Below, piece by piece: positions 36,767 to 57,551 of a stretch of DNA of 64,000 nucleotides. The position numbers were made by a program, and so were the translations under genes. The stretch comes from an uncultured virus (IMG/VR IMGVR_UViG_3300042343_001623). Its lineage: Duplodnaviria > Heunggongvirae > Uroviricota > Caudoviricetes. The stretch lies in the IMG/VR virus record IMGVR_UViG_3300042343_001623; one strand, written 5' to 3'. The stretch's first letter is position 1. Each line of letters begins with the position of its first letter. Under the pieces are notes generated by a model. The model saw only the letters and a list, made by a program, of their open reading frames with translations. It was not told the DNA's origin and ran no database searches.

Positions 36767-39163
36767 GTGGGAATACAAAATATCCGAAATCATTCCAACA
36801 ACTCCATTAAATTGAGATTGGATACTTCTGAGTATTATGATTTTTATCTATCTAAAGATGAAATTGAATATGATCAGGAGACCGTATTTTCAACAAATTT
36901 GATCGGTTTTGATGACGGAAATGTATTACCTGTTAATATAAGATTGTGGGATCCGGATTGTTCACCTCAACTCGAATTATTTTACGATGATTTTGAAACT
37001 GATAATAATTTAGTATCGGATAAGTTCTATCCTTTTCCTGATTTAGTTGATGCATCTTGTTACTCGTTGAGTGGAATTTGTGATGTTGGATTAACAGGAA
37101 TTGACAATGGACTCACAGACAGAATGAGTGGTGAAACACTCTATTACACAAGAGGATTATTAGATTCAATTAACAAATTTGACAGATTAACATACGATAG
37201 ACATCTTAAATTAATTTCGGTCACATCAAATGTAAGATCACCCAACTCAAGATTTTCAGGTATAACGGCAAACACCCTATATAATATAGTTTCAAAACAA
37301 GAGGCGGGTATAGGATACTACCAAGAATTATATGGTGGTTTTTATCAAGGTTTTTACAAACTATACGAATATGATTGGCAAATATTACCCGAAAGATATG
37401 AACTCGGATGGTCTATGGAGACGGTAATAAAGCCAAGAATATATGATGAATTTGAACCCGGCGCAGGTGAGACCACTCTAAACGAAATCTATCCAAATAA
37501 CGCAGGGATTTTCTTCTATATGGGGACAAGAGCGGAAGATAAATTCTATCATTATGCCACAGGTCATCCTGAAAGTTACACAGCTTATACACGAGTAACC
37601 GAAGAATTAAGTTGTTTGAAAACTTGTTCTTGTACTTTGACGGCATTCACTTCAGATTGTTACAATGTTTACCCAATATCAGGTGACACCTATCAAGGAA
37701 CGGATTGTACCGTTTGTGGAAATGCATGTGAACACAAAGTGGTTGCCATACCACCCAAAGATCCAACGATAGATGTATTATCAAATTCATTTGCAATACG
37801 ATTATCGGGTGACCCAAAAAACCCAAAAATTAATATAAGGACAATTACCATCACGGGAGCATGTCAAACAACTGCGGATTGTGAAACACACGAATATTAT
37901 TTAACAGGATATACAATCAACAACATTTATTCCAATATTGGAATTTACGATTTCTGTTCGGGAAGTACCAACCAAACTGACTTTTTGAATACTGAAAAAT
38001 GGTTACAGGTTGATGTCGTATTCAAACGATATACTTTCTACGAGGGATGTGACTTATTCTATGAAGGTGGAATTGGGGAAATGAGTTCCTTAATTTACCC
38101 TGCAACTGAAAGAGGTGACACTTTAAGTTTAATTCAACCACCTTATACTCACGACCAAGAAAAAGAATACCCCGTCCAAAGAGTCGTTATGAATAGAGAT
38201 TTCATTGACTCAAAAGATAAAAGACTTGGATCTTTGAAAGTATATCTCAATGGTTATTTATTTATGATCGTAGAAAACTTTGAGGAAATTATTCCAAGAC
38301 CTTTGAATACCGAAAAAGAAAAACAAATCGGTGTAAGTTATTCAATGTCATGGGGTGGTGGTACTCAAGGATTAAGGGAGAATCTAACATTTAATAGTTG
38401 TACAGGAACCACTTACCAACAGGATCCTGAGTTATTTCCCGATACAGTTTTGTCAGGTACATCACTTTCACAATTAGAGACCGGTATTTTATTAGAAAAG
38501 TACTTTGGGGGAACTTTTGATGGTGCAATTTCAGAATTTAGATTCTATGCCGAACCATTGAATGGTGGACAAGTTCAACACAATAACAGAATTTTAAGAA
38601 ATACTTATGATCTCTTTGATTATTTCTGTTTGGATTGTGAAAATTTCGAACCTTTACCAACACCATCACCAACCCCAACACCTACAGTTACACCAACGGT
38701 CACCAAAACTCCAACAAATACGCCAACAGTAACACCAACACTTACACCTTCAATTACCCAAACAATAACACCTACTCAAACAATTACTCCCACACCCACA
38801 GAAACACCTACACCCACGGCAACAGTAACACCCACAGAAACACCTACACAAACCCCTACACCATCTATTACTCCGAGTATCACACCAACAATATCTTTAA
38901 CTCCAAGTCAAACAGTTACACCTGGACTTACTCCAACACAAACACCAAGTGTAACCCCCACTCAAACTCCAACACAGACACCAACAGTTACGACGACACC
39001 AACGGTGACAACTACTCCAACACCAACTCAAACTCCAACTCAGACTCAAACTCCAACCGTATCACCGACAACTACTATAACACCATCAATTACGCCTTCT
39101 ATTTCAGAAACACCTACCGCTTCGGGTATAAGAACTGTCTTTGTTAGATTTAATACGCTGTAA
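36767..39163 (+). CDS. LamG/ConA-like structural protein with C-terminal Thr/Pro repeat
   Basis: GTG start; LKVYLNG and FDGAISEFRFYAEPL are LamG-like; about 155-aa TP-rich tail; Cys clusters. Confidence 0.7.
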   Translation: MGIQNIRNHSNNSIKLRLDTSEYYDFYLSKDEIEYDQETVFSTNLIGFDDGNVLPVNIRLWDPDCSPQLELFYDDFETDNNLVSDKFYPFPDLVDASCYSLSGICDVGLTGIDNGLTDRMSGETLYYTRGLLDSINKFDRLTYDRHLKLISVTSNVRSPNSRFSGITANTLYNIVSKQEAGIGYYQELYGGFYQGFYKLYEYDWQILPERYELGWSMETVIKPRIYDEFEPGAGETTLNEIYPNNAGIFFYMGTRAEDKFYHYATGHPESYTAYTRVTEELSCLKTCSCTLTAFTSDCYNVYPISGDTYQGTDCTVCGNACEHKVVAIPPKDPTIDVLSNSFAIRLSGDPKNPKINIRTITITGACQTTADCETHEYYLTGYTINNIYSNIGIYDFCSGSTNQTDFLNTEKWLQVDVVFKRYTFYEGCDLFYEGGIGEMSSLIYPATERGDTLSLIQPPYTHDQEKEYPVQRVVMNRDFIDSKDKRLGSLKVYLNGYLFMIVENFEEIIPRPLNTEKEKQIGVSYSMSWGGGTQGLRENLTFNSCTGTTYQQDPELFPDTVLSGTSLSQLETGILLEKYFGGTFDGAISEFRFYAEPLNGGQVQHNNRILRNTYDLFDYFCLDCENFEPLPTPSPTPTPTVTPTVTKTPTNTPTVTPTLTPSITQTITPTQTITPTPTETPTPTATVTPTETPTQTPTPSITPSITPTISLTPSQTVTPGLTPTQTPSVTPTQTPTQTPTVTTTPTVTTTPTPTQTPTQTQTPTVSPTTTITPSITPSISETPTASGIRTVFVRFNTL

Positions 39164-39165
39164 AA

Positions 39166-40386
39166 ATGGAAACGAACAATTTACTCCAATCAATTGAAAA
39201 TTTAAAGATAGAATATAACAATGATTCAATTTGTTTGGGAAAAAAAATCAAAAATGGTGTGGTTACTGATGAATTATCTATAGTTTTTTTTGTTGACGAA
39301 AAAAAACCAATAGAAAATTTAACTCAAAGTGATCTAATACCATCGAGAATAAATGTTGGTGGGACTATTTTGAAGACCGATGTTGTTGAAAGTACAACAC
39401 TGAACGTTCATCCTTGTCCAACAGAATTTAATTCAACCTGTATCTTTAATCCAGTACCAAATAGATCTTATATAAGACCAATAAAGGGTGGTATTTCAAT
39501 AAGAAAAACAACTGATGGTATTGGAACTCTTGGTTTTTTGGCTAAACATACTGAAACAGGTGCATTGGTTGGTGTTACTAATTTACACGTTGCACTAAAA
39601 GTACATTTTAATGCAAATGACCTTTGTAAAGAACCACCTTGTACGTTTGATTATAACTCCCTAATTGAACAAATTTATCAACCAGGTGAAAGTTCATCTT
39701 ACGAAACAGATTTTTATAACTTAGGCCGTGTTATGTATTGTACTTTACTTTATAATACTGGTTCGGCTGAAATTGATTGTTGTTTAGTGGCTTTAAAAGA
39801 AAGTGTATTGTCAAATAGTGAATCTTTCAAACAATATGGATTGAGTTTTACAACACCCCCTGTATTTGCAACAACCGCTGAGCTTGATTCTATTTTAACA
39901 AATAATATTCCTTTAGCCGCGTCCGGTAGATCATCAGGACCGAAAGAAGGTTCATTGTGTGGACTAAAAGCATTATATGTAAATTATTCATCTATGGTTA
40001 ATGGATATAGAAAAAACAACGACGGATACGTTTGGGGTAAGAGATTTGCAAATCAAATTGCCTATACTAGAGTAGATCAAGATTGTCCTGACCCATCAAT
40101 ACCCGGTGATTCGGGTTCCGCGGTTTTTGGAAATTTCGGAGGAACTTGGAAAGTTGTTGGTCTGAACTTTGCCGGTGGAACTATGAGTTCAGGCATTGAT
40201 ATAGGAATATTCAATAGAATCGATAGGGTTGCGGCCTTAATGGGAATTGAAGCGTGGGATGGATCTCAATTGAATTTTATAGATCTTAATAATGTCAGTA
40301 CTTACCAAGTTCAAGGTTTCAACTCCAACAACACAATAACTGTTGATGGTTCTACTTATTGTCAATCTGGATTAGTTAATAGTTAA
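39166..40386 (+). CDS. trypsin-like serine protease
   Basis: GTLG, TNLHV (His), IDC (Asp), GRSSG, PGDSGS (Ser), VGLNFAG. Confidence 0.8.
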   Translation: METNNLLQSIENLKIEYNNDSICLGKKIKNGVVTDELSIVFFVDEKKPIENLTQSDLIPSRINVGGTILKTDVVESTTLNVHPCPTEFNSTCIFNPVPNRSYIRPIKGGISIRKTTDGIGTLGFLAKHTETGALVGVTNLHVALKVHFNANDLCKEPPCTFDYNSLIEQIYQPGESSSYETDFYNLGRVMYCTLLYNTGSAEIDCCLVALKESVLSNSESFKQYGLSFTTPPVFATTAELDSILTNNIPLAASGRSSGPKEGSLCGLKALYVNYSSMVNGYRKNNDGYVWGKRFANQIAYTRVDQDCPDPSIPGDSGSAVFGNFGGTWKVVGLNFAGGTMSSGIDIGIFNRIDRVAALMGIEAWDGSQLNFIDLNNVSTYQVQGFNSNNTITVDGSTYCQSGLVNS

Positions 40387-40448: not shown

Positions 40449-41693
40449 GTGACTATATTTGTCCAAATAGCATCATACAGAGATCCCGAATTAGAAAACA
40501 CAGTTAGGGATATGATTTCAAACGCCGATCGACCCGAAAAATTAAGGTTTGGTATTGCAAGACAATATAAAGAAGAGGACGGTTTTGATAAATTAGAAGA
40601 ATTTAGAAATGATGATAGATTCAGAATTTTAGATATACCTTACGAAGAATCAAACGGAGCTTGTTGGGCGAGACACCTTATCCAACAACTTTATAGGAAT
40701 GAAACCTATACCCTCCAAATCGATTCACATATGAGATTCGAAAAGGGTTGGGACACCACTTTGATCGATATGATTGACCAACTACAAGAAGATGGACATG
40801 AGAAACCACTTCTAACAGGATATGTAAGTTCATTTGATCCTGATAATGACCCCGCAGGAAGAGCAAGAGATCCTTGGAGAATGGCATTCGATAGATTTAT
40901 CCCCGAGGGTGCAGTTTTCTTCCTACCTGAAACAATACCTGGTTGGACTGAACTAACCAAACCAGTTCCCGCTAGATTTTATTCCGCACACTTTTGCTTC
41001 ACACTCGGAAAATTTTCAAAAGAAGTTCAACACGACCCTGAATATTATTTCCACGGAGAGGAAATCAGCATCGCAGCAAGAGCATACACTCACGGATATG
41101 ATTTGTTTCACCCTCACAAGGTAGTTGTTTATCACGAATACACAAGAAAAGGACGAACCAAACAGTGGGATGACGATAAGAAGTGGGTTGAAAAGAACAA
41201 TCATTCTCATAAGAGAAACAGACAACTTTTTGGTATGGATGGTGAAGAAATGGTTGACTTAGGTCAATTTGGATTTGGTCCCGTCAGAACTTTAAGAGAT
41301 TATGAAAAATATTCAGGTCTCCTCTTTAGTAAAAGAGCGGTTCAAAAATACACTTTGGATAAGGAATATCCACCAAATCCAAATAATTACGAAACGGAGG
41401 AAGACTGGATCAACTCATTCACAAAACAATTCAAACATTGTATCGATGTTGCCTATGATCAGGTTCCCGAAAGAGATTATGATTTTTGGGTGGTTGCATT
41501 CCATGATCACAAGGATGAAACAATATACCGTAAGGATGCGGATAAACACGAAATTCAAGGGTTTTTTAGAGATCCTGACGGGTATTGTAAAGTTTGGAGA
41601 ACTTTCAATGCTGAAGAAAAACCTGCATATTGGGTTGTTTGGCCACACTCTGAATCTAAAGGGTGGGGTGAAAGAATGACAGGAAATTTATAA
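40449..41693 (+). CDS. GT60-like polypeptide N-acetylglucosaminyltransferase
   Basis: TIFVQIASYRDPEL, GACWAR, LQIDSHMRF..GWD, YFHGEE....ARAYTHGYDLF match the Skp1/mucin-type GlcNAc transferase family. Confidence 0.85.
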   Translation: MTIFVQIASYRDPELENTVRDMISNADRPEKLRFGIARQYKEEDGFDKLEEFRNDDRFRILDIPYEESNGACWARHLIQQLYRNETYTLQIDSHMRFEKGWDTTLIDMIDQLQEDGHEKPLLTGYVSSFDPDNDPAGRARDPWRMAFDRFIPEGAVFFLPETIPGWTELTKPVPARFYSAHFCFTLGKFSKEVQHDPEYYFHGEEISIAARAYTHGYDLFHPHKVVVYHEYTRKGRTKQWDDDKKWVEKNNHSHKRNRQLFGMDGEEMVDLGQFGFGPVRTLRDYEKYSGLLFSKRAVQKYTLDKEYPPNPNNYETEEDWINSFTKQFKHCIDVAYDQVPERDYDFWVVAFHDHKDETIYRKDADKHEIQGFFRDPDGYCKVWRTFNAEEKPAYWVVWPHSESKGWGERMTGNL

Positions 41694-41697
41694 AAAA

Positions 41698-42258
41698 ATG
41701 AAAGATTTATTTCTCAATTTAAAAAATGAAGACTTGGATGAGTTGAAAATGGAATCTTATTCTTTAATCAATAATGAAGAATATCAAAATTATTTTTTAC
41801 AAAAATCATCTCAGGAACACTATCGACTACTAACTTTTTTATCCAATTATTTTGATGGTGTATCATTTGTTGATGTCGGTACTTTATTAGGTTGTTCAGC
41901 ATTGGCTTTGGCCGCAAACAAAACAAATAAAGTTTACTCATTTAATTTGACAGATCAATTACAATTGAAAGAAAAACCGCAAAATGTTGAGTTTATAGTC
42001 GATGACGTAATGAGTGATAAATACAAAGAAATCATATTAGATTCCAAAATAATTCTGTTAGATACTTTCCATACAGGAGATTTTGAACTTATTTTTTTGA
42101 ACTATTTGAAAAAAATTAATTATAATGGAATATTGATATTAGACGACATACGTTTGAATAATGAAATGTCTCAGTTTTGGGAGACAATAAATGAAGATAA
42201 AATGGAAATCACCAACTTGGGTCATGTATCAGGGACTGGTGTTGTTTTTTTTGATTAA
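41698..42258 (+). CDS. class I SAM-dependent methyltransferase
   Basis: VDVGTLLGCSA, LLDTFH, ILILDDI. Confidence 0.75.
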   Translation: MKDLFLNLKNEDLDELKMESYSLINNEEYQNYFLQKSSQEHYRLLTFLSNYFDGVSFVDVGTLLGCSALALAANKTNKVYSFNLTDQLQLKEKPQNVEFIVDDVMSDKYKEIILDSKIILLDTFHTGDFELIFLNYLKKINYNGILILDDIRLNNEMSQFWETINEDKMEITNLGHVSGTGVVFFD

Positions 42259-42260
42259 AG

Positions 42261-42893
42261 ATGATAAAAAGTTGGACATATAACACCACCGGTGGTAAAA
42301 GGGAAGACATAAAAAAATATATATCCGACAACAATTTGAAAACAGTTGATGTTGGTGCATCTTACATGTTTTGGTCTTATCCTGAGTGTAAATTTGTTGC
42401 CGATTCGATTGTTGTCAATAAGGATGATGTTACTTTTTTTAATTTGAATTTGGAAGATAAAACCACATGGGGTGAGATATTATCATATGTCGAAACCTAT
42501 GGAAAATTTGATTTCTCTATTTGCTCACACACAATTGAAGATGTATTTAATCCTTTGGAATTAACAGACTTGTTGACTAAAATATCACTTGAGGGGTTTA
42601 TTGCGTCACCATCAAAATATGATGAATTTTCGTTTTTATACCAAAATAAATATCGTGGTAATGCCCATCATAAACAATTTTTAGAAATTATTAACAATGA
42701 AGTTGTTATTTTTCCAAAATTTTCTTGGATTGAAAATGATGTTAGAAGTGATGAAATCTTGATGAAAAATAAAGGTAAGGAAATTTCTTTTTTTTGGGAA
42801 AAGGAAATACCTATAAAAGTATTCGGAAATGGTATACCGTTTCAATCAGATAGTAACTTAATTAATGAATATTATAGACAATTGGATAATTAA
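42261..42893 (+). CDS. putative class I SAM-dependent methyltransferase
   Basis: VDVGAS, KFDFSICSHTIEDV. Confidence 0.65.
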   Translation: MIKSWTYNTTGGKREDIKKYISDNNLKTVDVGASYMFWSYPECKFVADSIVVNKDDVTFFNLNLEDKTTWGEILSYVETYGKFDFSICSHTIEDVFNPLELTDLLTKISLEGFIASPSKYDEFSFLYQNKYRGNAHHKQFLEIINNEVVIFPKFSWIENDVRSDEILMKNKGKEISFFWEKEIPIKVFGNGIPFQSDSNLINEYYRQLDN

Positions 42894-42894
42894 T

Positions 42895-43614
42895 ATGGAA
42901 AATGAAAAAATTTGCCTGATTACAGTATTATTTGACTATCCTGATTATTACGAACCATCTTTTTATAAAAACGCGTTGAAATATTTTTCATCTGAGGATA
43001 TTCACATAGTCAGAAATTCTGGTTTGGTTAAGAATGGATCTTACTATGACAAACTGTATTACTATAAAATAGTAAATCTTTTAGAATACATTAAATCTCA
43101 AATTCTTGGGAAGTATAAATATATACTATTTTTAGATGCCACGGACACAAATTTTATCGGTTCACCAAAAAATATAGTTGAAGATTTTCATTCATTGAAT
43201 TGTAGTATAGTTATGGGAGCTGAGAAGGGTTTGTGGCCACCGACTAACTATACTCACTTATATGAAAAAAAAAGGTCTATAAACAATTCCAAATATCTTA
43301 ACTCAGGTACATATTTCGGATACACTGAAAAAATAATCTATCATTTAGAGGATATTATTACTAAAGAATATCAAACGGGTATTGATGATCAAGGAAGATG
43401 GACAATTCAATATCTATTGAATGATGATATTATCATCGATCAAGAAAAAAACTTCTTTTTCAGTACGTTAGATAATAAAGACTATGTAGAAATCGAAAAT
43501 AATAAAGTAACATTGTTAAATTCAAATGCGTTTATAATTCATGATAATGGACCCTTCAACGATAATACCATAAAATTAACTCAATTTATTAATGAAAACT
43601 ATCAGAATAACTAG
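42895..43614 (+). CDS. glycosyltransferase, PLOD (lysyl hydroxylase) GT-domain-like
   Basis: LFLDATDT, GAEKGLWP, YLNSGTYFG, DDQ, IIHDNG mirror the PLOD GT domain motifs; start reassigned to MENEK. Confidence 0.75.
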   Translation: MENEKICLITVLFDYPDYYEPSFYKNALKYFSSEDIHIVRNSGLVKNGSYYDKLYYYKIVNLLEYIKSQILGKYKYILFLDATDTNFIGSPKNIVEDFHSLNCSIVMGAEKGLWPPTNYTHLYEKKRSINNSKYLNSGTYFGYTEKIIYHLEDIITKEYQTGIDDQGRWTIQYLLNDDIIIDQEKNFFFSTLDNKDYVEIENNKVTLLNSNAFIIHDNGPFNDNTIKLTQFINENYQNN

Positions 43615-44575
43615 ACAAGGGTTTCCAAATCACGGTCAACACAGTTGGATGAGTTACTTTAAATTTGTACTATCCAAAAAATATAATGTACTTATTGATC
43701 CAATTAATCCTGACATTGTAATACACTCGGATCTACACTATAATAGAGAACAAATCGATACATATACCAATCATTTACCTACAGAATATAGACAGAATGA
43801 TAAGAATAAAAAATTTATTTATGTTTCAGGTGAAGTCGCCGATTTTTCAGGACCTATATTTGCAAATGACAATCAGTGGGCGATAGGTTACAATAAATTT
43901 GAACACGAAAGATATTTGAGACAACCATCTGGTGTGTTCGATGTGTGGACATTATATGACGAATCAAGATTGGTTGATAGTCCATTATCTTGGTTGACTC
44001 AAAAGAGGAATATTGATCAAATTAAGAATAGAAACACAGGATTTTGTTCAATAACACAGGCATCAGATAATAAATTTAGAGGTTTAGTCTTTGACAAATT
44101 AAATGAATATAAGATGGTTACGTCATCAGGCCCTTGGAGACAAAATATAGATCCAAAAGATGAACTGAACAAATATCAATGGTTGAATCAAGTTTATATT
44201 GGAAGAAACGATGGATTGACTTACAGAGAAAAAATACAGTTTTTTCAAAAGTATAAATTTAATATTGCAATACACTACACAAATACTGATTATATATTAC
44301 AGGAAAAGTTATATCATGCTTTTTTTTCGGGTGCTATTCCTATTTTCTACGGGAATCAATATATTTTAGAGGAGGGATTTAACCCTGATAGTTTCGTAAA
44401 TTTGCATAATTTTTCGGATTTGAATGATTTTTTGGAGTTAATCAAGAGAATAGATAATGACGACAATTTGTATAAAAAATATATTGAAGCCCCTATTTTT
44501 TTGAATAATGAATTACCAATTTACTATGATTTTGATTACACACTTAATTTTCTAGAGAAAATTGTTGAATCATGA
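43592..44575 (+). CDS. GT10-like alpha-1,3-fucosyltransferase
   Basis: KIQFFQKYKFNIA......DYILQEKLYHAFFSGAIPIFYG...FNP.SF is the GT10 fucosyl motif. Confidence 0.8.
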   Translation: MKTIRITRQGFPNHGQHSWMSYFKFVLSKKYNVLIDPINPDIVIHSDLHYNREQIDTYTNHLPTEYRQNDKNKKFIYVSGEVADFSGPIFANDNQWAIGYNKFEHERYLRQPSGVFDVWTLYDESRLVDSPLSWLTQKRNIDQIKNRNTGFCSITQASDNKFRGLVFDKLNEYKMVTSSGPWRQNIDPKDELNKYQWLNQVYIGRNDGLTYREKIQFFQKYKFNIAIHYTNTDYILQEKLYHAFFSGAIPIFYGNQYILEEGFNPDSFVNLHNFSDLNDFLELIKRIDNDDNLYKKYIEAPIFLNNELPIYYDFDYTLNFLEKIVES

Positions 44576-45285
44576 AATACATTTTTACAACGTTGGCTGT
44601 TGGTAATTCGTACTTGGAAAATGCAATCAATTGTTATAATCAATTAAGTGAAAAATGTTCAGCAAGTTTTAATATTACAACAAACGAATCGATGGATGTA
44701 AGTGATAGAATCAATTTAGATTTATTTAAGTTAGACAAATATCACGATGACGGTGCTGGATTTTCATTTTACTTGAATTTAAAAGTATTATCCCTCAAAT
44801 ATTGTTTAGATAAGGAATTTGACTACATCATTTTTAACGACGCCGATTGGATGACTTCGGAAGGTTTTAGTGAACAAAAAATTATTAACATGTTCAATTA
44901 TATGGAAAAAAATAATTTAGATTTATTATTTGAAAGACCTGCCAAAATTGGTGACCACAAAAAAGATTTACAAAATTGTTTTTTTGACAGGAAATTATTT
45001 GATTATAACGTCTTCGATCATAATAAATGGGATGAAGCTCATGTAGTTAATGAACAATTTTTAGTGTTTAAAAATAATTGGAAATTCAGATTTTTCGTTA
45101 GGAGATGGGAGGAGTTTTTGTGGTACTCTATAAAAAATAATATAAGGAATTACCCTGACGGATTCGAAATAGGTGTTTCTGCTTTGGAGTCTGATATGAA
45201 ATGGGATTACGAAGCTTTTAGATACTTGTTACCAAATTGTTTTAAATTTTATGATAAATCTAATAACTTACATAAAAAGTTTTAA
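44572..45285 (+). CDS. putative GT-A glycosyltransferase
   Basis: TTLAVGNSY start, YIIFNDADW (DxD). Confidence 0.55.
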   Translation: MKYIFTTLAVGNSYLENAINCYNQLSEKCSASFNITTNESMDVSDRINLDLFKLDKYHDDGAGFSFYLNLKVLSLKYCLDKEFDYIIFNDADWMTSEGFSEQKIINMFNYMEKNNLDLLFERPAKIGDHKKDLQNCFFDRKLFDYNVFDHNKWDEAHVVNEQFLVFKNNWKFRFFVRRWEEFLWYSIKNNIRNYPDGFEIGVSALESDMKWDYEAFRYLLPNCFKFYDKSNNLHKKF

Positions 45286-45287
45286 AT

Positions 45288-45917
45288 ATGAATATACAAA
45301 CAAGAATTACTAAATTTACAAACTTGATAGATAATGACAGTCTATCGGCCTTTGACTATCATTCGGCACAACAAACTCACGAGGCGTACCAAGTATTCTA
45401 TGACTTTATTTCAAGAGTAAAACCCAAGAGGATTTTAGAAATAGGAACTGCTTTGGGTGGTTTTACTGAATTTTTAGATATAATTACTAAAGAACTCAAA
45501 TTAGATGTCAAAATACTATCATATGATATTTCCGAAAGACCTTGGTATAGAGAAATGATTGAAAAAGGTATTGACGTTCGTGTTGAAAACATTTTTTCAG
45601 ATGATTGGACTAATGTTAATCAGGAGGTCATTGACTTCATAAGGGAAGATGGTATAACTATAGTACTTTGTGACGGAGGGTATAAAATCGGAGAATTTAA
45701 TTTATTATCTGATTTTTTAAAGGTCGGTGACTTTATATTGGCACATGATTTTTGCTTAAATGACGAGGTATTTGAAAATGAAATGAAAAATAAAATTTGG
45801 AATTGGTGTGAAATTAAAGAATCTGACATAGTAAGTAAATCTCAAAAAAACAATCTGTCTTTCTATGATTATGATTTATTTAAAAAAGCAGCTTGGGTTT
45901 GTAAAGTTAAAGAATGA
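45288..45917 (+). CDS. class I SAM-dependent methyltransferase
   Basis: KPKRILEIGTALGG, VLCDGG, LKVGDFILAHD. Confidence 0.75.
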   Translation: MNIQTRITKFTNLIDNDSLSAFDYHSAQQTHEAYQVFYDFISRVKPKRILEIGTALGGFTEFLDIITKELKLDVKILSYDISERPWYREMIEKGIDVRVENIFSDDWTNVNQEVIDFIREDGITIVLCDGGYKIGEFNLLSDFLKVGDFILAHDFCLNDEVFENEMKNKIWNWCEIKESDIVSKSQKNNLSFYDYDLFKKAAWVCKVKE

Positions 45918-49905: not shown

Positions 49906-51138
49906 ATGGCTACACAAGGACAAATATCGATCACGGCAACCAATCTTTCTGGTGGATCATATAATTTTGAGATATATATTCGTGAATGTGGTTCGGGTAG
50001 TTGGGGATCTCCGATCGATACTATTCCTTACAGTGGGTTTCCTTATTATTTTAACGTAGATGCCGTTCTCAGTGGATCTGTAACTTGTTTTGAATATTTG
50101 GTAGAAGAACCAACAACGTTGGCTCAATGTACCGGACAAGTTAATTTTGTAACACCAACACCGACGCCAACTAAAACTCAAACACCTACACCAACTAAAA
50201 CTAAAACACCGACACCAACACCTACACCAACATCTTCTGTTGATTCCGGTGTCACTTTGAATCTATATTCAACATATAGTTCGGGTTCTCTGTTGGCGAA
50301 TTATGTGTTGGTAAGAGATAGTATAGCAACTGAGGACATCTCATATCGATTCACAAACACTTTAAAAACAACAGGAGGTACAGAGATTTCAATTGGATCG
50401 TTGATAGAAATACCCACAGGATTTTTAAGTGGGGAAACAATTTCTAAATTACCGTTTAATTCTTATAGTGAAATTGAACCAGGATATTCCAATATCTCAG
50501 CATTTACATCTACTTCATTAGAAACAACTGTTGTTGATCGATATACTGAAGTTACATTCCAAGGAGTTGTTATTCCAAATGTACAATATATTTTCCAAGA
50601 TTGTTGTGGAATTTTACCTAATTTGGAGGTTGTGGTTCCGTTGACTGCGGTTCAGGTAAATTCATCTAATCCTTGGGTTCTACAAGGTAGAGTCATCAGT
50701 TATTTGGGTAATTGTTATAAGCCATTGACTCAAGGAGGAACGGGAACTTTATATTATCCAGCACCAGATGGGTCTACTTGTTCATCTTCAATATGCCCAT
50801 CATGTCAAGTAATTACATCTCCAACACCCACAGTTACAAGGACACCAACAGTTACACCAACTATCACCAAAACACCTACAATCACACCTACAAGTAGTGT
50901 TACACCAACGTCACCATGTTCCGATTGTGAATCTAATTTTGTTGATTGTTATGAGATTATGGGATGTTACTCATATCCAATTGGTGTGAGTCCAACACCT
51001 ACAAGTACAGTTACACCTACACCAACACCAACCTCAACAATAACACCAACTATAACTCCAACACCAAGTGTTACACCAACCAACTTGATTTGTTTGGATC
51101 CTGACGCTGAGGGTTATGTTTATGATTATCCCGAATAA
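49906..51138 (+). CDS. Cys-rich Thr/Pro-repeat protein
   Basis: Three TP tracts; N-domain paralogous to 53384 and 55013; middle domain paralogous to 47614. Confidence 0.7.
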   Translation: MATQGQISITATNLSGGSYNFEIYIRECGSGSWGSPIDTIPYSGFPYYFNVDAVLSGSVTCFEYLVEEPTTLAQCTGQVNFVTPTPTPTKTQTPTPTKTKTPTPTPTPTSSVDSGVTLNLYSTYSSGSLLANYVLVRDSIATEDISYRFTNTLKTTGGTEISIGSLIEIPTGFLSGETISKLPFNSYSEIEPGYSNISAFTSTSLETTVVDRYTEVTFQGVVIPNVQYIFQDCCGILPNLEVVVPLTAVQVNSSNPWVLQGRVISYLGNCYKPLTQGGTGTLYYPAPDGSTCSSSICPSCQVITSPTPTVTRTPTVTPTITKTPTITPTSSVTPTSPCSDCESNFVDCYEIMGCYSYPIGVSPTPTSTVTPTPTPTSTITPTITPTPSVTPTNLICLDPDAEGYVYDYPE

Positions 51139-51157: not shown

Positions 51158-53365
51158 ATGCCATTAGGACAACTCTGTTTAACTGATTTAGGTGGATTCG
51201 AATTAACCGATTTGGTTAATATCTATTCCAATGTTGATGGGTTTACCACCCCAATTGTTCAAGATGTTTTGATCGAATCTATGGCGTCTTCTGAAGAGAG
51301 TTGTCCTTACTTGTTGACAGATGTACCCGAAGGTACAACACAAATTTATATAGAGACCGTTGGCGGTGAAGTATGTTTATATTTACCATTTCAAGAGATA
51401 AACTTATGTGAAGATTGTGATTTTGGTTTCAATGAATACACCGCTCAGACGATTGGTATACTCTCTGTTGGTATTTTGACTGCATCATGTACAAGTGAAA
51501 TCACCGACTACGTAATTGATTGGTTTAATTCAAACGGTGAAGTTGTATTAACAAGTGGTTTTGGTGATCAATTTGCCTATACCTTTCCACACCCAATGAC
51601 GGGCAATGCATCACCACCTATAAATCCAGGTATATATGAACCAATTATCAGACAAGTTTTGATAAATGGCGTAATCTTTTCATCGGTCGAATTTGGTAAT
51701 AATAATGTTTTGACTTCATTAAGTGGATGTTTACCTAATATTGAAGTAATTGTTTCTCCGAACACCTGTGACAATGGAAACACTCCAAATGGTACTTATA
51801 GTCATAGTGTCACATATAACGCAGTCGTTGGTGAAATACCCTCGTCAATGGATATAGTCTTGGAAATAGATTCGAGCGTAAACTATATTGCTTGGGCATT
51901 TGATGCCGATGCGATCACTGATCAGATTAAAGTTGTTTTTTCAGGATCGGCATATTCAGAAAAATATATTTTAGATTGGTTCAATGTTGGTCAATTGAAT
52001 ATATCTACAAGTTTTTCAGAACCACCTCCGTATGAAATACAATTTTTACAATCATCATCTGGTGATAGACAAGATTTGAAAAAAGTAAATTGTTTGACAG
52101 GATTTACTGTTTCTGAAGGGGACAAAATAATTTTTGAAGTGATTCCGAATCAATTGAATAATAATACAAATTGGAATTTAAGATATAAATGCTTAGAAAC
52201 ATTTGATTGTGAATCTTGTTGGTTGACCGGTACTTCAAAAATTAATTTAACAAATGCGTTTGGAATAAATTCAATTCAAAATACTTGCACAGATAGAAGA
52301 GCCTTCTTATTTAATTTAAGTGGGTCATGTAGTAGTTTTGAAGACAACCTAAATGATTACTTTCAAACTCAATTCATTATAAATCCACCAGGGGTTAACC
52401 CTACTTGGCCGAATACAGGTTCTTACTTTATAAATAGATTTCTCCCTAACGGATCAACCTCATATTGGGACACAACCTATTTATATTTTACACAATTAAG
52501 TTATAGTAGTTTTCCGATCAGTATTTCTCCCGCATGTAATACACCAAGCACCAACCAAATTCAATTTACCAAAACTTATAACCCAGGTATACAAGAGGCA
52601 ACTATCTACATGTATTTTACTAATCAATCTGAATTTTTATCGTATTGGAATAATTATCTCAGTGTTAGTAACCAATTTTCACCAACACAAAACACAAATG
52701 ATCCTGAATATTATGAAGGTTATGTTTTCATAGTAAGACCACAACTGACACCAAATACTCAATGTGGTGATACAAGTCCTGATCCTATAACTTATTATAT
52801 ACCTAAAGATGCTTTATTCGTATCAGGACAAACAGATGGTGGAGGGTACGAACTTCAAGTTTTTTGGGGTCCAGTATATAATAACATTTCCGCATCGAAT
52901 TGTGCGTATGGTACAATAAACAGTGTGGTTAATAGTTACACAAATTCTAGAACAGGAAATAATACTTCATTTACCAATAATAAAGGATCAAGACCTATAG
53001 ATCCTGTTGGTAAGCTTGAAATTTCGACAATTAATTCACTTAATACTGGTGTAACTTTAAGCTATAATTGGGTTTTCCATAGAAAATTAAATGAGACTTT
53101 ACCAAGAAATTATAACGATACAAATATTATATATCCACAATACAGTTCTGTAACGTGCCCAAATTTATATACTTTGGATCAAGCAAATAGTCCAAATACG
53201 GATTACTATAGAAGAATTTATGCTAGATATAGAATAGAATTAATAAATCCAAGTGATCCTGAAGAATTCCGTGTCTTGAGTCAGTCAGTATCGGGAAATG
53301 ATTTGGCGTTTGTTTTTAGTGGAGGAACAATAAATAATGTGAATACAAATTATGTAATTCAATAA
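51158..53365 (+). CDS. Cys/Asn-rich beta-strand protein, putative virion appendage
   Basis: 735 aa, within the same operon; no long TP tract. Confidence 0.65.
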   Translation: MPLGQLCLTDLGGFELTDLVNIYSNVDGFTTPIVQDVLIESMASSEESCPYLLTDVPEGTTQIYIETVGGEVCLYLPFQEINLCEDCDFGFNEYTAQTIGILSVGILTASCTSEITDYVIDWFNSNGEVVLTSGFGDQFAYTFPHPMTGNASPPINPGIYEPIIRQVLINGVIFSSVEFGNNNVLTSLSGCLPNIEVIVSPNTCDNGNTPNGTYSHSVTYNAVVGEIPSSMDIVLEIDSSVNYIAWAFDADAITDQIKVVFSGSAYSEKYILDWFNVGQLNISTSFSEPPPYEIQFLQSSSGDRQDLKKVNCLTGFTVSEGDKIIFEVIPNQLNNNTNWNLRYKCLETFDCESCWLTGTSKINLTNAFGINSIQNTCTDRRAFLFNLSGSCSSFEDNLNDYFQTQFIINPPGVNPTWPNTGSYFINRFLPNGSTSYWDTTYLYFTQLSYSSFPISISPACNTPSTNQIQFTKTYNPGIQEATIYMYFTNQSEFLSYWNNYLSVSNQFSPTQNTNDPEYYEGYVFIVRPQLTPNTQCGDTSPDPITYYIPKDALFVSGQTDGGGYELQVFWGPVYNNISASNCAYGTINSVVNSYTNSRTGNNTSFTNNKGSRPIDPVGKLEISTINSLNTGVTLSYNWVFHRKLNETLPRNYNDTNIIYPQYSSVTCPNLYTLDQANSPNTDYYRRIYARYRIELINPSDPEEFRVLSQSVSGNDLAFVFSGGTINNVNTNYVIQ

Positions 53366-53383: not shown

Positions 53384-55006
53384 ATGCCAACAACGATTCA
53401 AATAAATTTGACAAATCCAGCCGCGGGGGCTACAATTTATGACGTATATGTAAGTGATTGTGAAGGCGGTTCCAATATTTTGGTGGCAAATGACATAAAT
53501 GCGGCCACTTTTCCAATTTATGTTGACCTAAGTGCCGACGAGTTTGGTTTAGACGGTGTTACTTGTTATGAATACATAATTTCAGCAGACACTGGTTGTA
53601 TTTGTGAAAATGTTGTTGGTCAAGTTCCGATTTCACCAACACCAACAAATACACCTACAAATACAGTTACTCCAACAAATACCGTTACCCGCACTGTTAC
53701 ACCAACAGTGACTAGAACACCTACAACTACAACAACTCCAACCCCAACAACAACAGTACCCTGTAGTTGTTTTGAAAATATCTATGTTTGGTATACATGT
53801 AATACAGGTGGACAGTCTTCAACAATTTGTCCCGAACAAATACAAGTTGTGTACACTTTATGTGATCAAACAACCGACAAATTTTTATTATCCGAAGGTG
53901 TCGAAAATCAACAATTGATCACAGATTGTGTTATTTTGAGTTCAATTTCGATTGAAACCGCACAGGCAATACCTGGTCTGAACTTCTTATTGGATACCTC
54001 TGAATCTATTTGCTGTGGTGTACCTGTTTCACCAACACAGACACCAACACAGACTGTGACTCCAACAGTAACACAAACACCAAATAATACACAAACACCT
54101 ACACCAACCCCTACAGTTACAAGAACAGTCACCAAAACACCAACAATTACACCAACAAGGACCAAAACTCCGACTCCAAGTCCTTTTGGTTACACTTGTT
54201 TTAGTGCCGAAACAAAGTATAACCAAGATAGTGAACAACCTATCAATACTTTTGCTAATTTATTTGGTACTTTAGATACTGTTAATGTTCATATTTGTGA
54301 CTTCTTGAATTGTGAAGATATTGAGCAAATTAAGACCGAAGGTAATTTGATAACAACAAACCTGTGTTTTATTTCAACAGATCCAAGACCCACGGTTGTA
54401 GGTGATAGTTCACAAGTATATGTTTTCAGCGCAGGAAGTTATGTACCTCTTACTTATGGAATGTTGACATCGATCACAACAAGTGTTTCACCATCGATTG
54501 CATTCCACTATATAATGTTGAATAATTGTGTATACCAATTCTATCCCGGTTTTCCTGAGAATCCTTCTCCAACATCATCGACACCGATGTTCTTGGAGTT
54601 AGTCAATTGTTGTTCGGGTGATTATAACGTTACAAGAGACTATAATATAACAAATTCTGTGACAAATAGTTGGGATTTTGATAATTACATACCCAATAAC
54701 CCAACTATTACTCTGACAAGAAATGAAGAATACCGATTCCATATCTGTGCTGAGGGATATAAGTTTGCAATTGGAAACTTCAGAGGTAATTTCTTATTGG
54801 ATGGAGATTTCTCACCAATCGTTGATCAAGCAGTAATTTCAACAAATAATACTACAGGTGAAGATCTAGGTACAATAGTATTTACACCAAACGAAGATTA
54901 TGGAAATAATGATTTGTATTATTTCGCATACTCTATAAACGGTCAAACAGCGACAGGTTATCCCAACAGTAATTCGTTCTGGGGACTAATAAATTTACAA
55001 GGATAA
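53384..55006 (+). CDS. Cys-rich Thr/Pro-repeat protein
   Basis: YDVYVSDC..CYEY.IS.DTGCICE N-domain; TP tracts; C-terminal NPTITLTR...YRF beta-domain. Confidence 0.7.
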   Translation: MPTTIQINLTNPAAGATIYDVYVSDCEGGSNILVANDINAATFPIYVDLSADEFGLDGVTCYEYIISADTGCICENVVGQVPISPTPTNTPTNTVTPTNTVTRTVTPTVTRTPTTTTTPTPTTTVPCSCFENIYVWYTCNTGGQSSTICPEQIQVVYTLCDQTTDKFLLSEGVENQQLITDCVILSSISIETAQAIPGLNFLLDTSESICCGVPVSPTQTPTQTVTPTVTQTPNNTQTPTPTPTVTRTVTKTPTITPTRTKTPTPSPFGYTCFSAETKYNQDSEQPINTFANLFGTLDTVNVHICDFLNCEDIEQIKTEGNLITTNLCFISTDPRPTVVGDSSQVYVFSAGSYVPLTYGMLTSITTSVSPSIAFHYIMLNNCVYQFYPGFPENPSPTSSTPMFLELVNCCSGDYNVTRDYNITNSVTNSWDFDNYIPNNPTITLTRNEEYRFHICAEGYKFAIGNFRGNFLLDGDFSPIVDQAVISTNNTTGEDLGTIVFTPNEDYGNNDLYYFAYSINGQTATGYPNSNSFWGLINLQG

Positions 55007-55012
55007 AAAAAA

Positions 55013-57166
55013 ATGCCAACTAATGTACTCGTGGGTCTATCGAATGACACAATAGGTGTTGAAAATTATGATATTTACGTTAGTGATTGTAACGATGGTA
55101 TATTGGTTTATGTGACAGGTATAACATTCGAACAATTCGAATATACTTTTGATATAGAACAATATTTAACGGGATATTCAGGATGTTATAACTATTTTAT
55201 TTCAGGAGATACAGGATGTATTTGTGAAGGACAATACACAAATATACCCGCATCCCCAACTCCAACAAAAACCGTCACACCAACAATAACTCCGACCAAT
55301 ACGGTGACTGCGTCTATAACACCAACAAATACAATCACACCCACGAATACCATTACTCCGACAGTAACACCGACAATTACACGAACACCAACATTAACAC
55401 CAACATTGACTAGAACTGTTACTCCAACATCAACTGTAACTCCAACCCCTCCCTGTCTTTGTTATGAAAACATTCAATTGAGTTTGGTGTGTGATATTCT
55501 TGAAGGTCAAAGCTGTCCTGAGTTTATTTTTGTAGATTATACAACTTGTGGTGGTAGTCAAGCGTCCATTCAATTAAACTACGGAGCTTCAGGTATTTTG
55601 ATCTCAGGTTGTTCGACACTCAATTCATTCCAAGTAAGTAGTTCAACTCCAATCTTGGATGGTCAATTAGTAGTTGATTTCTCTAATGCTGATTGTTGTG
55701 CTGATCCACCTCTCTCTCCGACACCAACACAAACCAGCACATCTACGAATACACCAACACCCACACTTACACCTACCGTGACACCTACAAGTCTCAATTT
55801 CGCGGTTAGTATTTCAGGATGTTGCTTCCCGAATGTTCTTTCTACAACATTTACATTCCCAACCGCAGTATTTGTAGGAAACAGTTTTTATTGGGAAGGA
55901 AACCAACAATTCCCCGCACAGTGTTATTTGATCACAAATGTAATTTCTGTTGGTGATGTTTTCGGAGCACCGATCGCCACGATCGAAGATGTGTATGATC
56001 AATGTTCGGGATGTACAACCGTTAATGTTTGTCCTACACCGACACCAACAGTTACTCCGACCGTAACAGTAACACCTACAGTAACAAGTACACCAACATT
56101 AACCCCAAGTGTTACAAGAACAGTCACTCCAACGTTGAGTCAAAACCTAATATATGCAAGAGTAAGTCCCTGTTGTCCTGAATTATATCCTGGACAGACG
56201 AATATAAGTGTCGTGATGCCAGCATCATCTTATAGTCTCCCGCAGGTTATAGTTGCAGACAATAACTGCTTCACGTTAGGTGTTCAACTTCCTCAACCAG
56301 GTACGATAAATTTGGTTTATCAATCAACATTTACTGCGGGGTCTGGAGATTGCGCATCATGTCTCTTAGTATATCCATGTCCAGTAACACCAACTCCAAC
56401 ACCAACGGTCACTCCAACACCGACACCTTCTACTTATTTCAAGTTGACCCCTTGTTGTGATTATGACCCATCAATAACAATTGAACAAACGGTTGCTAGT
56501 TCCGCGTACAACTTCATTAACGGTAGAAGATATATACTCGATGGTGTGGCATATACAGTAGCGGGTCCATTAACCGGTCCTTCTTCTTACGTTCCATCAA
56601 CAATAAATGGACCATATAACACATGTTCATTGGCTTTAGCGGCTCCTGTTGTACAGTTCTCTTGTTATACACCACCCGCACCTACACCTTCCTCTACACC
56701 AGCATGTGATTGTAGAAGATACGTAAGTGTTTCGTATTTGTGTGATGAGATCGACCAAACAACATTCTGTCAAGGGTCGATAGATTTCAAATATACCGAT
56801 TGTGAAACTTTGGAAGAAGTGGTTTCATCTATCGAGTTGTACAACAGTAAAGTTTTACAAGAATGTGTCGTATTCAATAGTATAGAAGCAATCACCGAAC
56901 TGAACCCCGCGGAATTGTTCATCGTAGAAGTAGGACAGAGTGAGTGTTGTGGATCTGCCCCTCAACCTGATAGTTTGGTTTGGGAGGTCAGAAATTGTGT
57001 CACAGGACTTGTTTCTACCATGTCAGGTCCTTCGACATTAACAAATGGTAACGTTGTAAGAACTTCTGATCTACAATGTTGGTTGGTGTTAAATTTGTCA
57101 CCACAACCTACTTACCAATACGTGTATTCGTCAACTCAAGTGTCTTGTAACGATTGTTTATCATAA
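55013..57166 (+). CDS. Cys-rich Thr/Pro-repeat protein
   Basis: YDIYVSDC..CYNY.ISGDTGCICE N-domain; alternating TP linkers and CC...CY...CxxC modules. Confidence 0.7.
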   Translation: MPTNVLVGLSNDTIGVENYDIYVSDCNDGILVYVTGITFEQFEYTFDIEQYLTGYSGCYNYFISGDTGCICEGQYTNIPASPTPTKTVTPTITPTNTVTASITPTNTITPTNTITPTVTPTITRTPTLTPTLTRTVTPTSTVTPTPPCLCYENIQLSLVCDILEGQSCPEFIFVDYTTCGGSQASIQLNYGASGILISGCSTLNSFQVSSSTPILDGQLVVDFSNADCCADPPLSPTPTQTSTSTNTPTPTLTPTVTPTSLNFAVSISGCCFPNVLSTTFTFPTAVFVGNSFYWEGNQQFPAQCYLITNVISVGDVFGAPIATIEDVYDQCSGCTTVNVCPTPTPTVTPTVTVTPTVTSTPTLTPSVTRTVTPTLSQNLIYARVSPCCPELYPGQTNISVVMPASSYSLPQVIVADNNCFTLGVQLPQPGTINLVYQSTFTAGSGDCASCLLVYPCPVTPTPTPTVTPTPTPSTYFKLTPCCDYDPSITIEQTVASSAYNFINGRRYILDGVAYTVAGPLTGPSSYVPSTINGPYNTCSLALAAPVVQFSCYTPPAPTPSSTPACDCRRYVSVSYLCDEIDQTTFCQGSIDFKYTDCETLEEVVSSIELYNSKVLQECVVFNSIEAITELNPAELFIVEVGQSECCGSAPQPDSLVWEVRNCVTGLVSTMSGPSTLTNGNVVRTSDLQCWLVLNLSPQPTYQYVYSSTQVSCNDCLS

Positions 57167-57176
57167 CATTCAGTGA

Positions 57177-57551
57177 ATGGAATTTAATATCAGTAAAAAA
57201 AGCACGTTACCCCTCCTTAAAGTAGAACTTACTAAGGATGGGGTAACGATGTTTACTGATTTTATAGATGACCTTGAAAAGGCGACGATTTTTTTTTCAA
57301 TGAATGATGTTGCCACAGGAACCAAGAAAGTTGTAAACGAAAGGGCGTATATTACAGCAAAAGAATTTACTGAACCTGAAACAAATACCGAATATTATAT
57401 TTTTTATAAATTCAGATCTCAGGACACAAACAGGGTTGGAAGATATGAAGGTGAATTTTTTATATCTATACCCGGAAAAGGTGTTTTAAAAACTCCCATC
57501 CGTGAACCTTTATTTATTAATGTCAAGGACTCGATTGATTTAACGATCTAA
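57177..57551 (+). CDS. BppU-N-like baseplate adaptor domain protein
   Basis: F.I.K.STLP.LKVEL...IFFSM...Y.F...DT..VG.Y.GEF; paralogous to the N-terminus of 47614. Confidence 0.55.
   Translation: MEFNISKKSTLPLLKVELTKDGVTMFTDFIDDLEKATIFFSMNDVATGTKKVVNERAYITAKEFTEPETNTEYYIFYKFRSQDTNRVGRYEGEFFISIPGKGVLKTPIREPLFINVKDSIDLTI

Follow-up and report, generated by a model that had tools for sequence, protein, structure and literature searches.

Introduction

Can a bacteriophage encode, side by side, an enzyme that starts mucin-type O-glycans and the proteins that would carry them? This question is raised by positions 36767-57551 of a 64,000-nucleotide (64-kb) stretch of DNA from an uncultured virus of the Caudoviricetes (IMG/VR record IMGVR_UViG_3300042343_001623), where genes for predicted glycosyltransferases (GTs), led by one of family GT60, lie among genes for proteins with long Thr/Pro-rich (TP) tracts. 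The whole 64-kb stretch is called the window, and genes are named by their start positions in it (Table 1). An earlier note, made from the sequence, had proposed that the phage initiates, extends, fucosylates and methylates O-glycans on its own mucin-like appendages in the cytoplasm. On the evidence below, we consider it probable that 36767-57551 encodes a system with which the phage adds mucin-type O-glycans to its own appendage stalks in the cytoplasm.

GT60 enzymes form N-acetylglucosamine (GlcNAc)-alpha-O-Thr on mucin-like proteins, and one member of the family is described as soluble and cytosolic (PMC9472816, PMC8724618). Phage-encoded glycosylation of the virion is already known, from the sources cited below, for mycobacteriophages; for jumbo phages, the only prior hint of it is the Schiff staining of phage XacN1. 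In the literature searched, which was mainly non-subscription, we found no work linking GT60 to Thr/Pro proteins in phages, and no published description of a hypervariable island led by GT60 and paired with TP-stalk proteins.

Results

Thr/Pro-rich proteins flank a glycan cassette

The region 36767-57551 consists of 16 co-directional, tightly packed genes, and every open reading frame (ORF) from 36767 to 60332 is on the + strand with a spacing of -29 to +66 nt. A residue was assigned to a TP tract when it was inside a 20-residue window with at least 13 Thr, Ser or Pro, at least 4 Pro and at least 6 Thr or Ser. ORFs were counted from 60 aa upwards, which gives 65 in the window and 115 when the flanks of the near-identical record G001 are added. 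By this criterion five ORFs are TP-positive, out of 65 as well as out of 115, with 163 (36767), 302 (47614), 132 (49906), 114 (53384) and 187 (55013) tract residues. All five are found in the one 16-ORF block (hypergeometric P 2.8e-5, or about 3e-3 after multiplication by 100 possible positions).

Single TP tracts are 32-200 residues long and join Cys-rich modules, the Cys content of the five proteins being 2.1-5.6% (median of the remaining 60 ORFs, 0.65%). The 898 tract residues comprise 40% Thr (359), 21% Pro (189), 7% Val and 7% Ser. Tandem Repeats Finder gave 18 DNA repeat rows within the tracts (for example 48111-48319, with a period of 60, 3.5 copies and 96% matches), and these repeats appear to be recent. 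No N-terminal hydrophobic segment was seen in the first 35 aa of the TP proteins by Kyte-Doolittle hydropathy, which is not a dedicated signal-peptide predictor; the best 10-residue mean ranges from -0.56 to 1.91, versus 2.80 for a TonB-dependent receptor and 2.25 for a type-9 secretion system (T9SS) protein encoded in the same window. The five proteins with (T/S)P-rich tracts joining Cys-rich domains, and their lack of an evident signal peptide, had both been pointed out in the earlier note and were found as described. The same is true of the co-oriented cassette that these proteins flank (40449-47596), which consists of eight + strand ORFs with a spacing of -29 to +4 nt.

GT60 and TP proteins occur together in related phages

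Loci of relatives were obtained by a pattern scan of a viral contig collection, which returned 187 matches, from which 80 loci were kept. The earlier note had suggested co-occurrence across related phages as a check of its proposal, and this co-occurrence is clear: 66 of the 80 GT60 loci have a TP ORF within 10 kb, versus 4 of 80 portal-centred control loci of relatives. Counted by ORF, the numbers are 129/1,313 in GT60 loci versus 4/874 in portal loci (odds ratio 23.7), the P value of this ratio not being a true probability because the loci, being related, are not independent. When the GT60 proteins are dereplicated, a TP ORF is nearby in 28 of 33 clusters at 90% identity and in 15 of 18 at 80%. 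Of 76 loci, 27 have a TP tract in the gene directly upstream of GT60 and 50 have one in any of the three upstream genes; on the other side of the cassette, the first + strand gene after HtrL-GT is TP-positive in 26 of 73. As background, TP ORFs make up 3% (32/1,064) of the ORFs in three whole relatives.

Sites coding for PTPTPT were counted in whole records. There are 31 in XacN1 and 23 in Xoo-sp13, two isolates that bear GT60, and 9, 39, 27, 24 and 1 in the records G001-G005, with 0-1 sites for a reversed-pattern control. None is present in five T4-like phages whose capsid proteins are the closest, all of them outside the four phage records that match GT60. Altogether, PT tracts are found in 7/7 GT60-positive versus 0/5 GT60-negative genomes. 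Very long TP-tract proteins are encoded by the 322-kb relative G002, of 3,705 aa (189388-200505) and 3,782 aa (282440-293788), the latter with 995 tract residues and a 65-aa N-domain of type B (see below).

Enzymes of the cassette

The 40449 protein matches PF11397 with 258 bits (cut-off 21), in two stretches that correspond to model positions 1-43 and 91-349 of 352. GT60 and GT27 are described as the families in which DxH replaces the DxD motif of GT-A enzymes (PMC7185993). In the 40449 protein a DSH (DxH-type) motif at aa 92-94 is invariant in 83/83 homologues, those of XacN1 and Xoo-sp13 included, and is accompanied by a total of 118 invariant positions across the 83. A PDB sequence search with this protein gave no match. 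The C-terminal extension (aa 293-414) lies outside the Pfam model and is conserved, with about 20 invariant positions across the 83 homologues, Xanthomonas phages included; a clade-specific domain for acceptor binding is one possibility. In metagenomes the GT60 protein has more than 7,500 homologues, the best 120 listed being 72-98% identical to it. From its sequence, the 40449 product is proposed to be the initiating polypeptide alpha-GlcNAc-transferase.

The assignments of the earlier note to the other cassette genes fared unequally. Its GT60-like, PLOD-like and GT10 identities are confirmed by Pfam matches above the cut-offs (Table 1), and the GT10 homologue in one related locus (L010) additionally matches FucT_N. 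For the HtrL-GT fusion (45914), the HtrL_YibB part is sound and also matches TIGR02192 (E 5e-14), while the GT part has a sub-threshold match to PF00535 (GT2, E 0.006); a PDB sequence search with this protein gave nothing usable. Three methyltransferases had been named. The 45288 product is firmly one of them: it has homologues in 25 related loci, and it also matches the NCBIfam rhamnosyl O-methyltransferase with an E of 3.4e-5, which is far below the cut-off of that model. The 41698 product is a weak case, its comparison with the 45288 family by hhalign giving an E of 0.0017 and a probability of 15%. The 42261 product has no match in Pfam, PHROGs or NCBIfam and no relation to the neighbouring methyltransferases by hhalign, which leaves this third assignment unsupported. 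For 44572, taken as a GT-A enzyme, there is no Pfam, PHROG or NCBIfam match, no related neighbour by hhalign and a BLASTP comparison with 45914 at chance level; by a GT8 lead from Atlas it is possibly a GT8-like GT-A enzyme. By hydropathy, no transmembrane segment is present in any of the cassette enzymes.

A conserved enzyme pair encloses a variable island

In the relatives, HtrL-GT is found downstream of GT60 in 77 of the 80 loci, a 57177-like gene follows HtrL-GT in 68 and the family-B DNA polymerase gene (PolB) follows in 36. In the 76 loci that hold both enzymes, the interval between GT60 and HtrL-GT contains 0-10 genes. These amount to 208 ORFs, which fall into 68 clusters; 32 have a Pfam match (E<=1e-3), every one of them (32/32) to a glycan-related family, and the other 36 are without match. 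The glycosyltransferases of the island include GT25, GT10 with FucT_N, GT_PLOD, GT34, GT2, GT7C, a weak GT1 and RXYLT1_C. They are accompanied by UDP-galactopyranose mutase, three sulfotransferase families, a carbamoyltransferase, FkbM, CmcI and other methyltransferases, and a HAD-nucleotidyltransferase fusion (sugar nucleotidyltransferase). Because GT60 and HtrL-GT are kept and the genes inside vary, this block of soluble enzymes is best described as a conserved initiator/finisher pair with a fast-changing tailoring set. The turnover of the inner set between relatives suggests that the glycan itself is under diversifying selection.

N-terminal domains and gene order suggest a possible virion location

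The stand-alone 57177 protein and the N-domain of 47614 are paralogues (36% identity in alignment), and the alignment of this family comprises 51 sequences with 65% mean column identity. Its AF2 model (pLDDT 80.5) is a beta-sandwich, for which VIA returned the 80alpha baseplate (Z 8.7), BppU of TP901-1 (Z 8.1, 19% identity), the NF5 baseplate (Z 7.9), the N-domain of TP901-1 ORF48 (Z 7.1) and generic immunoglobulin (Ig) folds (Z ~7), a Z of about 8 being, according to VIA, within the usual best-match range for models without a clear match. In BFVD, BppU_N proteins, tailspikes and minor tail proteins are among the 64 matches of the model at E<=1e-3. Foldseek against the PDB gave no row at E<=1e-3, its top two rows being phage baseplates, and the profile of the family gave chance-level rows only against PDB sequences. 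The 57177-type domain is always N-terminal, either alone or fused, and is present in 373 longer proteins. The payloads fused to it in relatives are TP tracts, Big_2, Fib_succ_major, DUF285 and Peptidase_C1, a layout that looks like that of an anchor with a variable distal part.

The other TP proteins have a comparable arrangement. In 68 TP ORFs the first tract begins at residue 60-79, and the N-domains of about 65 aa that precede it are of two recurring types. Those of 49906, 53384 and 55013 align with type A (about 65-75 aa), for which a PDB profile search returned nothing usable; PHROGs gave 0 families for 14 type A N-domains. In the relative G004, baseplate wedge genes (gp25- and gp6-like) and a gene for a 'virion structural protein' precede the second cluster of TP ORFs, and in XacN1 the giant ORF325 with a PT linker adjoins a baseplate wedge gene and a virion-packed peptidase. 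From the one BppU_N-like fold (Z ~8) and this gene order in relatives, we infer that the TP proteins are located on the virion.

Beyond its TP tracts, the 47614 protein continues with a 180-aa module and a Cys-containing module of 10-residue repeats. The N-part of 36767, whose homologues are the first gene of the + strand block in 27 of the 80 related loci, has a weak ConA-like/Laminin_G_3 lead (Atlas 0.94; Laminin_G_3 in 4/18 homologues, best E 0.034). Its AF2 model from an 18-sequence alignment was unusable (pLDDT 33.7, pTM 0.27), and a PDB profile search gave no match.

Isolated phages with the same pair

Orthologues of GT60 (45-50% identity) were found in only 4 of 50,697 phage records, namely XacN1, Xoo-sp13 and the Stenotrophomonas phages CM1 and RAS14. 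In XacN1, GT60 is ORF334 (47% identical) and HtrL-GT is ORF330 (43%), with a carbamoyltransferase between them; Xoo-sp13 has the same gene order and a 40% identical HtrL-GT. The XacN1 group is thus like the window in having GT60 and HtrL-GT orthologues in the same order, variable genes between them and TP-tract ORFs in the genome. It differs in that the inner genes of XacN1 are the carbamoyltransferase and two further ORFs, that the hosts are Gammaproteobacteria, and that neither the N-part of 36767 nor 57177 has a tblastn match in these or any other isolates among the 50,697 records. XacN1 encodes at least 10 TP-tract ORFs, including six tandem paralogues, ORF232-237 (122000-134000), each with a conserved N-part of about 200 aa followed by a Thr/Pro tract of 70-190 residues. 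Thr/Pro tracts are also present in ORF180, ORF190, ORF325 and ORF384.

Gels of XacN1 virions showed at least two Schiff-stained bands, and the authors proposed phage GTs as their makers (PMC5852040, Suppl. Fig. S4). In the text of that publication, as far as available, the GT is not linked to GT60 or to TP tracts.

Discussion

Proposed mechanism

The findings are consistent with the following scheme. In the bacterial cytoplasm, GT60 would transfer alpha-GlcNAc from host UDP-GlcNAc to Thr/Ser residues of the TP tracts, with no lipid carrier or flippase involved, and the remaining enzymes of the cassette would extend, fucosylate and O-methylate the chain. The TP proteins would dock to the particle by their N-terminal domains, BppU_N-like in 47614 and 57177 and type A in 49906, 53384 and 55013. 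The glycosylated stalks, stiffened and protected from proteases, would keep the variable distal modules away from the particle.

A wider reading, which we hold to be less likely than not, is that a widespread aquatic jumbo-phage clade builds a eukaryote-style mucin coat, in which the GT60 initiator and the HtrL-GT finisher enclose an O-antigen-like hypervariable island acting as a 'glycan code'. The glycosylated Thr/Pro stalks would then display swappable payloads (lectin-like, Ig-like or protease), and such a phage glycocalyx may tune how well the phage adsorbs, how sticky its particles are and how they withstand proteases or grazers.

Comparison with known systems

The nearest parallels in enzymology are the GT60 enzymes of protists, TcOGNT1 of T. 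cruzi and the Golgi enzyme of Dictyostelium, which share with 40449 the PF11397 family, a DxH-type motif and Thr/Pro-rich acceptor or acceptor-like sequences. Dictyostelium mucin O-GlcNAc can carry a fucose cap (PMC9472816, PMC8724618), to be compared with the fucosyltransferase in the GT60 block of the window. Like the cytosolic Skp1 enzyme, the GT60 of the window is predicted to be soluble and not bound to a membrane. Unlike the protist enzymes, it is phage-encoded, would act in a bacterial cytoplasm and has the conserved C-terminal extension of 120 aa. A hydroxyproline linkage, as in Skp1, was considered and is unlikely: a P4H-type oxygenase was not found in 5/5 records searched with a single family, the prolyl hydroxylase PF13640, which makes a direct Thr/Ser linkage the likelier one.

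Mycobacteriophage GTs modify the phages' own virion proteins, with glycans at the C-termini of capsid and tail-tube proteins (Freeman et al. 2023, cited in PMC12619734 and PMC10877033). The window resembles these phages in the presence of phage-encoded GTs. It differs from them in its candidate acceptors, namely TP stalks that are long and lie inside modular accessory proteins, in the GT60 initiator and in the hypervariable enzyme island; the mycobacteriophage acceptor architecture is absent here, the capsid ORF of the window and the tail ORFs of the G001 flanks being without a Thr/Pro-rich tag by the TP criterion.

Glycans of giant viruses include methylated or fucosylated sugars. Chloroviruses and mimivirus glycosylate their own structural proteins (PMC9614988, PMC4691112, PMC9546862, PMC12003778), and the soluble, cytoplasmic GT sets behind chlorovirus capsid glycans and mimivirus fibrils, with PLOD/collagen-type GTs such as the mimivirus collagen glucosyltransferase, are similar to what is seen in the window. 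In contrast, the hosts of giant viruses are eukaryotes, linkages and enzymes differ, and a pairing of GT60 with TP tracts is not described in the available parts of those sources. The 'moraphages' are large aquatic phages with genomes up to 307 kb, predicted Bacteroidota hosts and four core putative GT orthogroups, whose function is left open among DNA, host serotype and virion; TP tracts are not mentioned in the available text (PMC12619734). The window resembles them in its aquatic nature, Bacteroidota host prediction, genome size and GTs, a resemblance that does not imply membership of that lineage.

Evidence that weighs against the proposal

Several observations weigh against glycosylation of the TP stalks. 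The TP tracts as acceptor and GlcNAc as sugar are, like the virion location, parts of the proposal that we infer; the computational predictions of the earlier note turned out as expected, with a link between TP tracts and GT60 that is not exclusive. In a reverse test, a scan for DNA coding for TPTxTPTxTPT gave at least 168 stretches in at least 80 loci and at least 50 records. Among the matches listed, 6 of 50 records have GT60 within 10 kb, and 11 of 47 have it at any distance in the same record. The other 36 of these 47 listed viral records, many of them small fragments, are without GT60, as are 5 of the 6 listed records with a completeness of at least 90%. GT60 is thus not required for TP tracts, which are common linkers. 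Conversely, 14 of the 80 GT60 loci are without a TP ORF within 10 kb. Only part of the TP ORFs of whole relatives are near GT60, a second cluster of them lying 60-100 kb downstream of the GT60 cluster.

Three of the eight cassette genes (41698, 42261 and 44572) appear from their sequences to be without a firm family. A fold match at Z ~8, as for the 57177 model, is a common score, and the BppU_N fold is taken as a lead, weighted only by the kind of proteins matched; Pfam BppU_N has no sequence match to 57177 or the 47614 N-domain even at E up to 5. The stained bands of XacN1 are without protein identity in the published text available (PMC5852040). Finally, HtrL_YibB, GT25 and the GT9 of XacN1 are known as families of lipopolysaccharide (LPS)-core loci, where the acceptor is likewise cytoplasmic.

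Alternative explanations

This last point leads to an alternative that we judge unlikely, in which the island remodels a glycan of the host envelope during infection (LPS or lipooligosaccharide core, capsule or S-layer), for example to block superinfection or the adsorption of progeny to debris, and the TP proteins are mere neighbours. The GT9 gene of XacN1 adjoins the cluster and has its best matches in Xanthomonas according to the authors (PMC5852040), enzymes of the LPS core are cytoplasmic and would need no phage flippase, and the window itself contains Bacteroidota outer-membrane genes. Among the window ORFs and the Pfam-named island clusters, HtrL_YibB and GT25 are the only LPS-named families. 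No flippase, polymerase or phosphoglycosyl transferase is among the 32 Pfam-named island clusters, and no gene of a lipid-linked pathway or of the LPS core (phosphoglycosyl transferase, Wzx/Wzy, ligase) was seen among the window ORFs or those clusters. Moreover, GT60 has been characterised on polypeptides only, per the cited literature as far as available, and a host-envelope target explains neither the 24-fold enrichment of GT60 loci in TP ORFs nor the distribution of PT tracts between GT60-positive and GT60-negative genomes.

Equally unlikely, in our judgement, is that phage proteins are glycosylated elsewhere than on the TP tracts, either other virion proteins or the folded Cys-rich modules, with the TP tracts being plain flexible linkers in a hypervariable fibre-gene region that hosts the island by chance. 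Such an acceptor would fit the TP tracts of phages without GT60, the distant second TP cluster and the position of mycobacteriophage glycans (cited in PMC12619734). It fits less well with the proteins encoded here: the capsid protein (13730-15532), the tail sheath and the other flank ORFs, in a region where the tail-tube gene of a relative lies, have no Thr/Pro-rich tract by the TP criterion. In addition, the characterised acceptors of GT60 are, in the sources cited, Thr residues in Thr/Pro-rich mucin domains, and TP ORFs directly adjoin GT60 or HtrL-GT in about one-third of the loci each.

It is hardly credible that the GTs hypermodify phage DNA against restriction, as glycosylated hydroxymethyl-pyrimidines. 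In favour of such a role, the block is bordered at its end by the family-B DNA polymerase gene, and phage GTs that add diverse glycans to DNA are known (Pyle et al. 2024, cited in PMC12619734). Against it, the ThyA-family genes found in two relatives have the scores of ordinary thymidylate synthase equivalogs and are located more than 100 kb away from GT60, and no hydroxymethylase was seen among the window ORFs. Fucosyl-, sulfo-, carbamoyl- and O-methyltransferases and GT60 itself are not known to be of DNA-modifying types.

Source genome and other genes of the window

The window is part of the genome of an uncultured jumbo phage with a T4-type head and a contractile tail. Besides the head genes of Table 1, it contains genes for PhoH, dUTPase, a helicase and the family-B DNA polymerase (57618). 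G001 is a linear viral record of 109,981 bases with a CheckV completeness of 36%, near-identical to the window (99.3% identity over the first 404 bases of the window and 100% elsewhere where compared), and its flanks contribute a tail sheath and a baseplate hub; an 18-base change of offset between the two occurs somewhere before window position 38952. Complete relatives have genomes of 291-322 kb with a GC content of 31-34%. The closest capsid proteins of isolates, 43-44% identical, are those of Microcystis phage Mel-JY01 and Flavobacterium phage immuto. In the capsid protein of the window (600 aa), the gp23 domain covers aa 342-585 only and is preceded by an N-terminal extension of about 340 residues without assignment.

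The phage contig carries two Bacteroidota-type outer-membrane genes, both on the - strand and both with a hydrophobic N-terminus: a TonB-dependent receptor (CarboxypepD_reg, Plug and barrel; 17188-19971) and a protein with a T9SS C-terminal sorting domain (19973-21565). Because of the CarboxypepD_reg-containing receptor and the sorting-domain protein, the host is probably a member of the Bacteroidota.

Within the block, the 39166 protein has weak Pfam matches to Trypsin (E 0.074) and NAL1_N (E 0.006) and occurs in 6 of the 80 related loci. The 51158 protein, in the row of TP genes, is 31% identical over aa 101-351 to a 735-kb uncultured phage record (LR756501/LR756503), its sole match in the phage collection. 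Three further glycosyltransferase candidates are found on the - strand outside the block, at 28199-29038 (GT2_2), 29035-30099 (GT1-like) and 32989-34203 (phrog_7162), the last being kept upstream of the block in 13 related loci. A DUF3721 protein with a duplicated KQYVSKSKEPKK segment (35933-36709, - strand) is a conserved divergent neighbour of the block in 18 related loci. Also on the - strand are a weak ECF sigma-70-like protein (27487-28230) and a 508-aa protein (61795-63321) in which Fe/Mn superoxide dismutase domains occupy aa 33-222 and the long C-terminal part has no assignment. A scan for promoters and terminators gave no excess over shuffles (promoter-like 117 versus 94 +/- 11, terminator-like 5 versus 9.9), and operon boundaries were not obtained.

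Table 1. Head-module genes and genes of the 36767-57551 block, with window positions and the matches on which the descriptions rest.
Gene or product	Position	Strand	Description	Match or motif
Large terminase	start 5446		T4-type head module	
Portal	start 7256		gp20-type; T4-type head module	
Prohead protease	start 11389		T4-type head module	
Capsid protein	13730-15532	+	gp23-type; T4-type head module	
36767	36767-39163	+	798 aa; conserved 620-aa N-part, TP tract aa 624-786, 12-aa C-terminal tail	
39166	39166-40386	+	406-aa chymotrypsin-like serine protease candidate	GDSGS motif; phrog_20754 'protease' E 8.6e-15
40449	40449-41693	+	GT60-family glycosyltransferase, predicted soluble	PF11397 E 2.2e-76; phrog_24687 E 4.9e-169
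41698	41698-42258	+	186-aa probable class-I S-adenosylmethionine (SAM) methyltransferase, weakly supported	Methyltransf_24 E 0.039
42261	42261-42893	+	210 aa	no family match
42865	42865-43614	+	PLOD-type GT-A glycosyltransferase	PF25342 GT_PLOD E 3e-16, above curated cut-off
43592	43592-44575	+	GT10-family (alpha-1,3-fucosyltransferase type)	PF00852, GT10 C-terminal domain, E 4.3e-11, above cut-off
44572	44572-45285	+	237 aa; possible GT8-like GT-A enzyme (lead only)	Atlas viral cluster 0.96, 20% of members with Glyco_transf_8
45288	45288-45917	+	CmcI / rhamnosyl O-methyltransferase-type sugar methyltransferase	PF04989 (RMNT_CmcI) E 3.1e-9
45914	45914-47596	+	HtrL-GT: HtrL_YibB domain (aa 3-253) and GT2-like GT-A domain (aa 295-391)	PF09612 E 4.1e-11
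47614	47614-49848	+	744-aa appendage candidate; BppU_N-like N-domain aa 1-120, five TP tracts (302 residues)	
49906	49906-51138	+	410 aa; type A N-domain of about 75 aa, three TP tracts, Cys-rich modules	
51158	51158-53365	+	735-aa Cys-containing protein without TP tract	no family match (Pfam, PHROGs, NCBIfam)
53384	53384-55006	+	540 aa; type A N-domain, two TP tracts, Cys-rich module of about 80 aa, 270-aa C-terminal domain	
55013	55013-57166	+	717 aa; type A N-domain, four TP tracts, 40 Cys (5.6%)	
57177	57177-57551	+	124 aa; BppU_N-like Ig-type domain on its own; conserved as the final gene of the block, ahead of PolB	

Implications

If phage-encoded O-glycosylation of the TP stalks is correct, very abundant aquatic jumbo phages encode a mucin-type enzyme and its candidate substrate side by side. 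GT60, which has been studied in protists only, would gain a branch in bacterial viruses, with phages as a reservoir of the family, and such enzymes would be usable as tools for cytoplasmic O-glycosylation. For the phages themselves, the glycans of the virion surface would be a variable trait that affects host range and the persistence of the particles on particulate matter and mucus.

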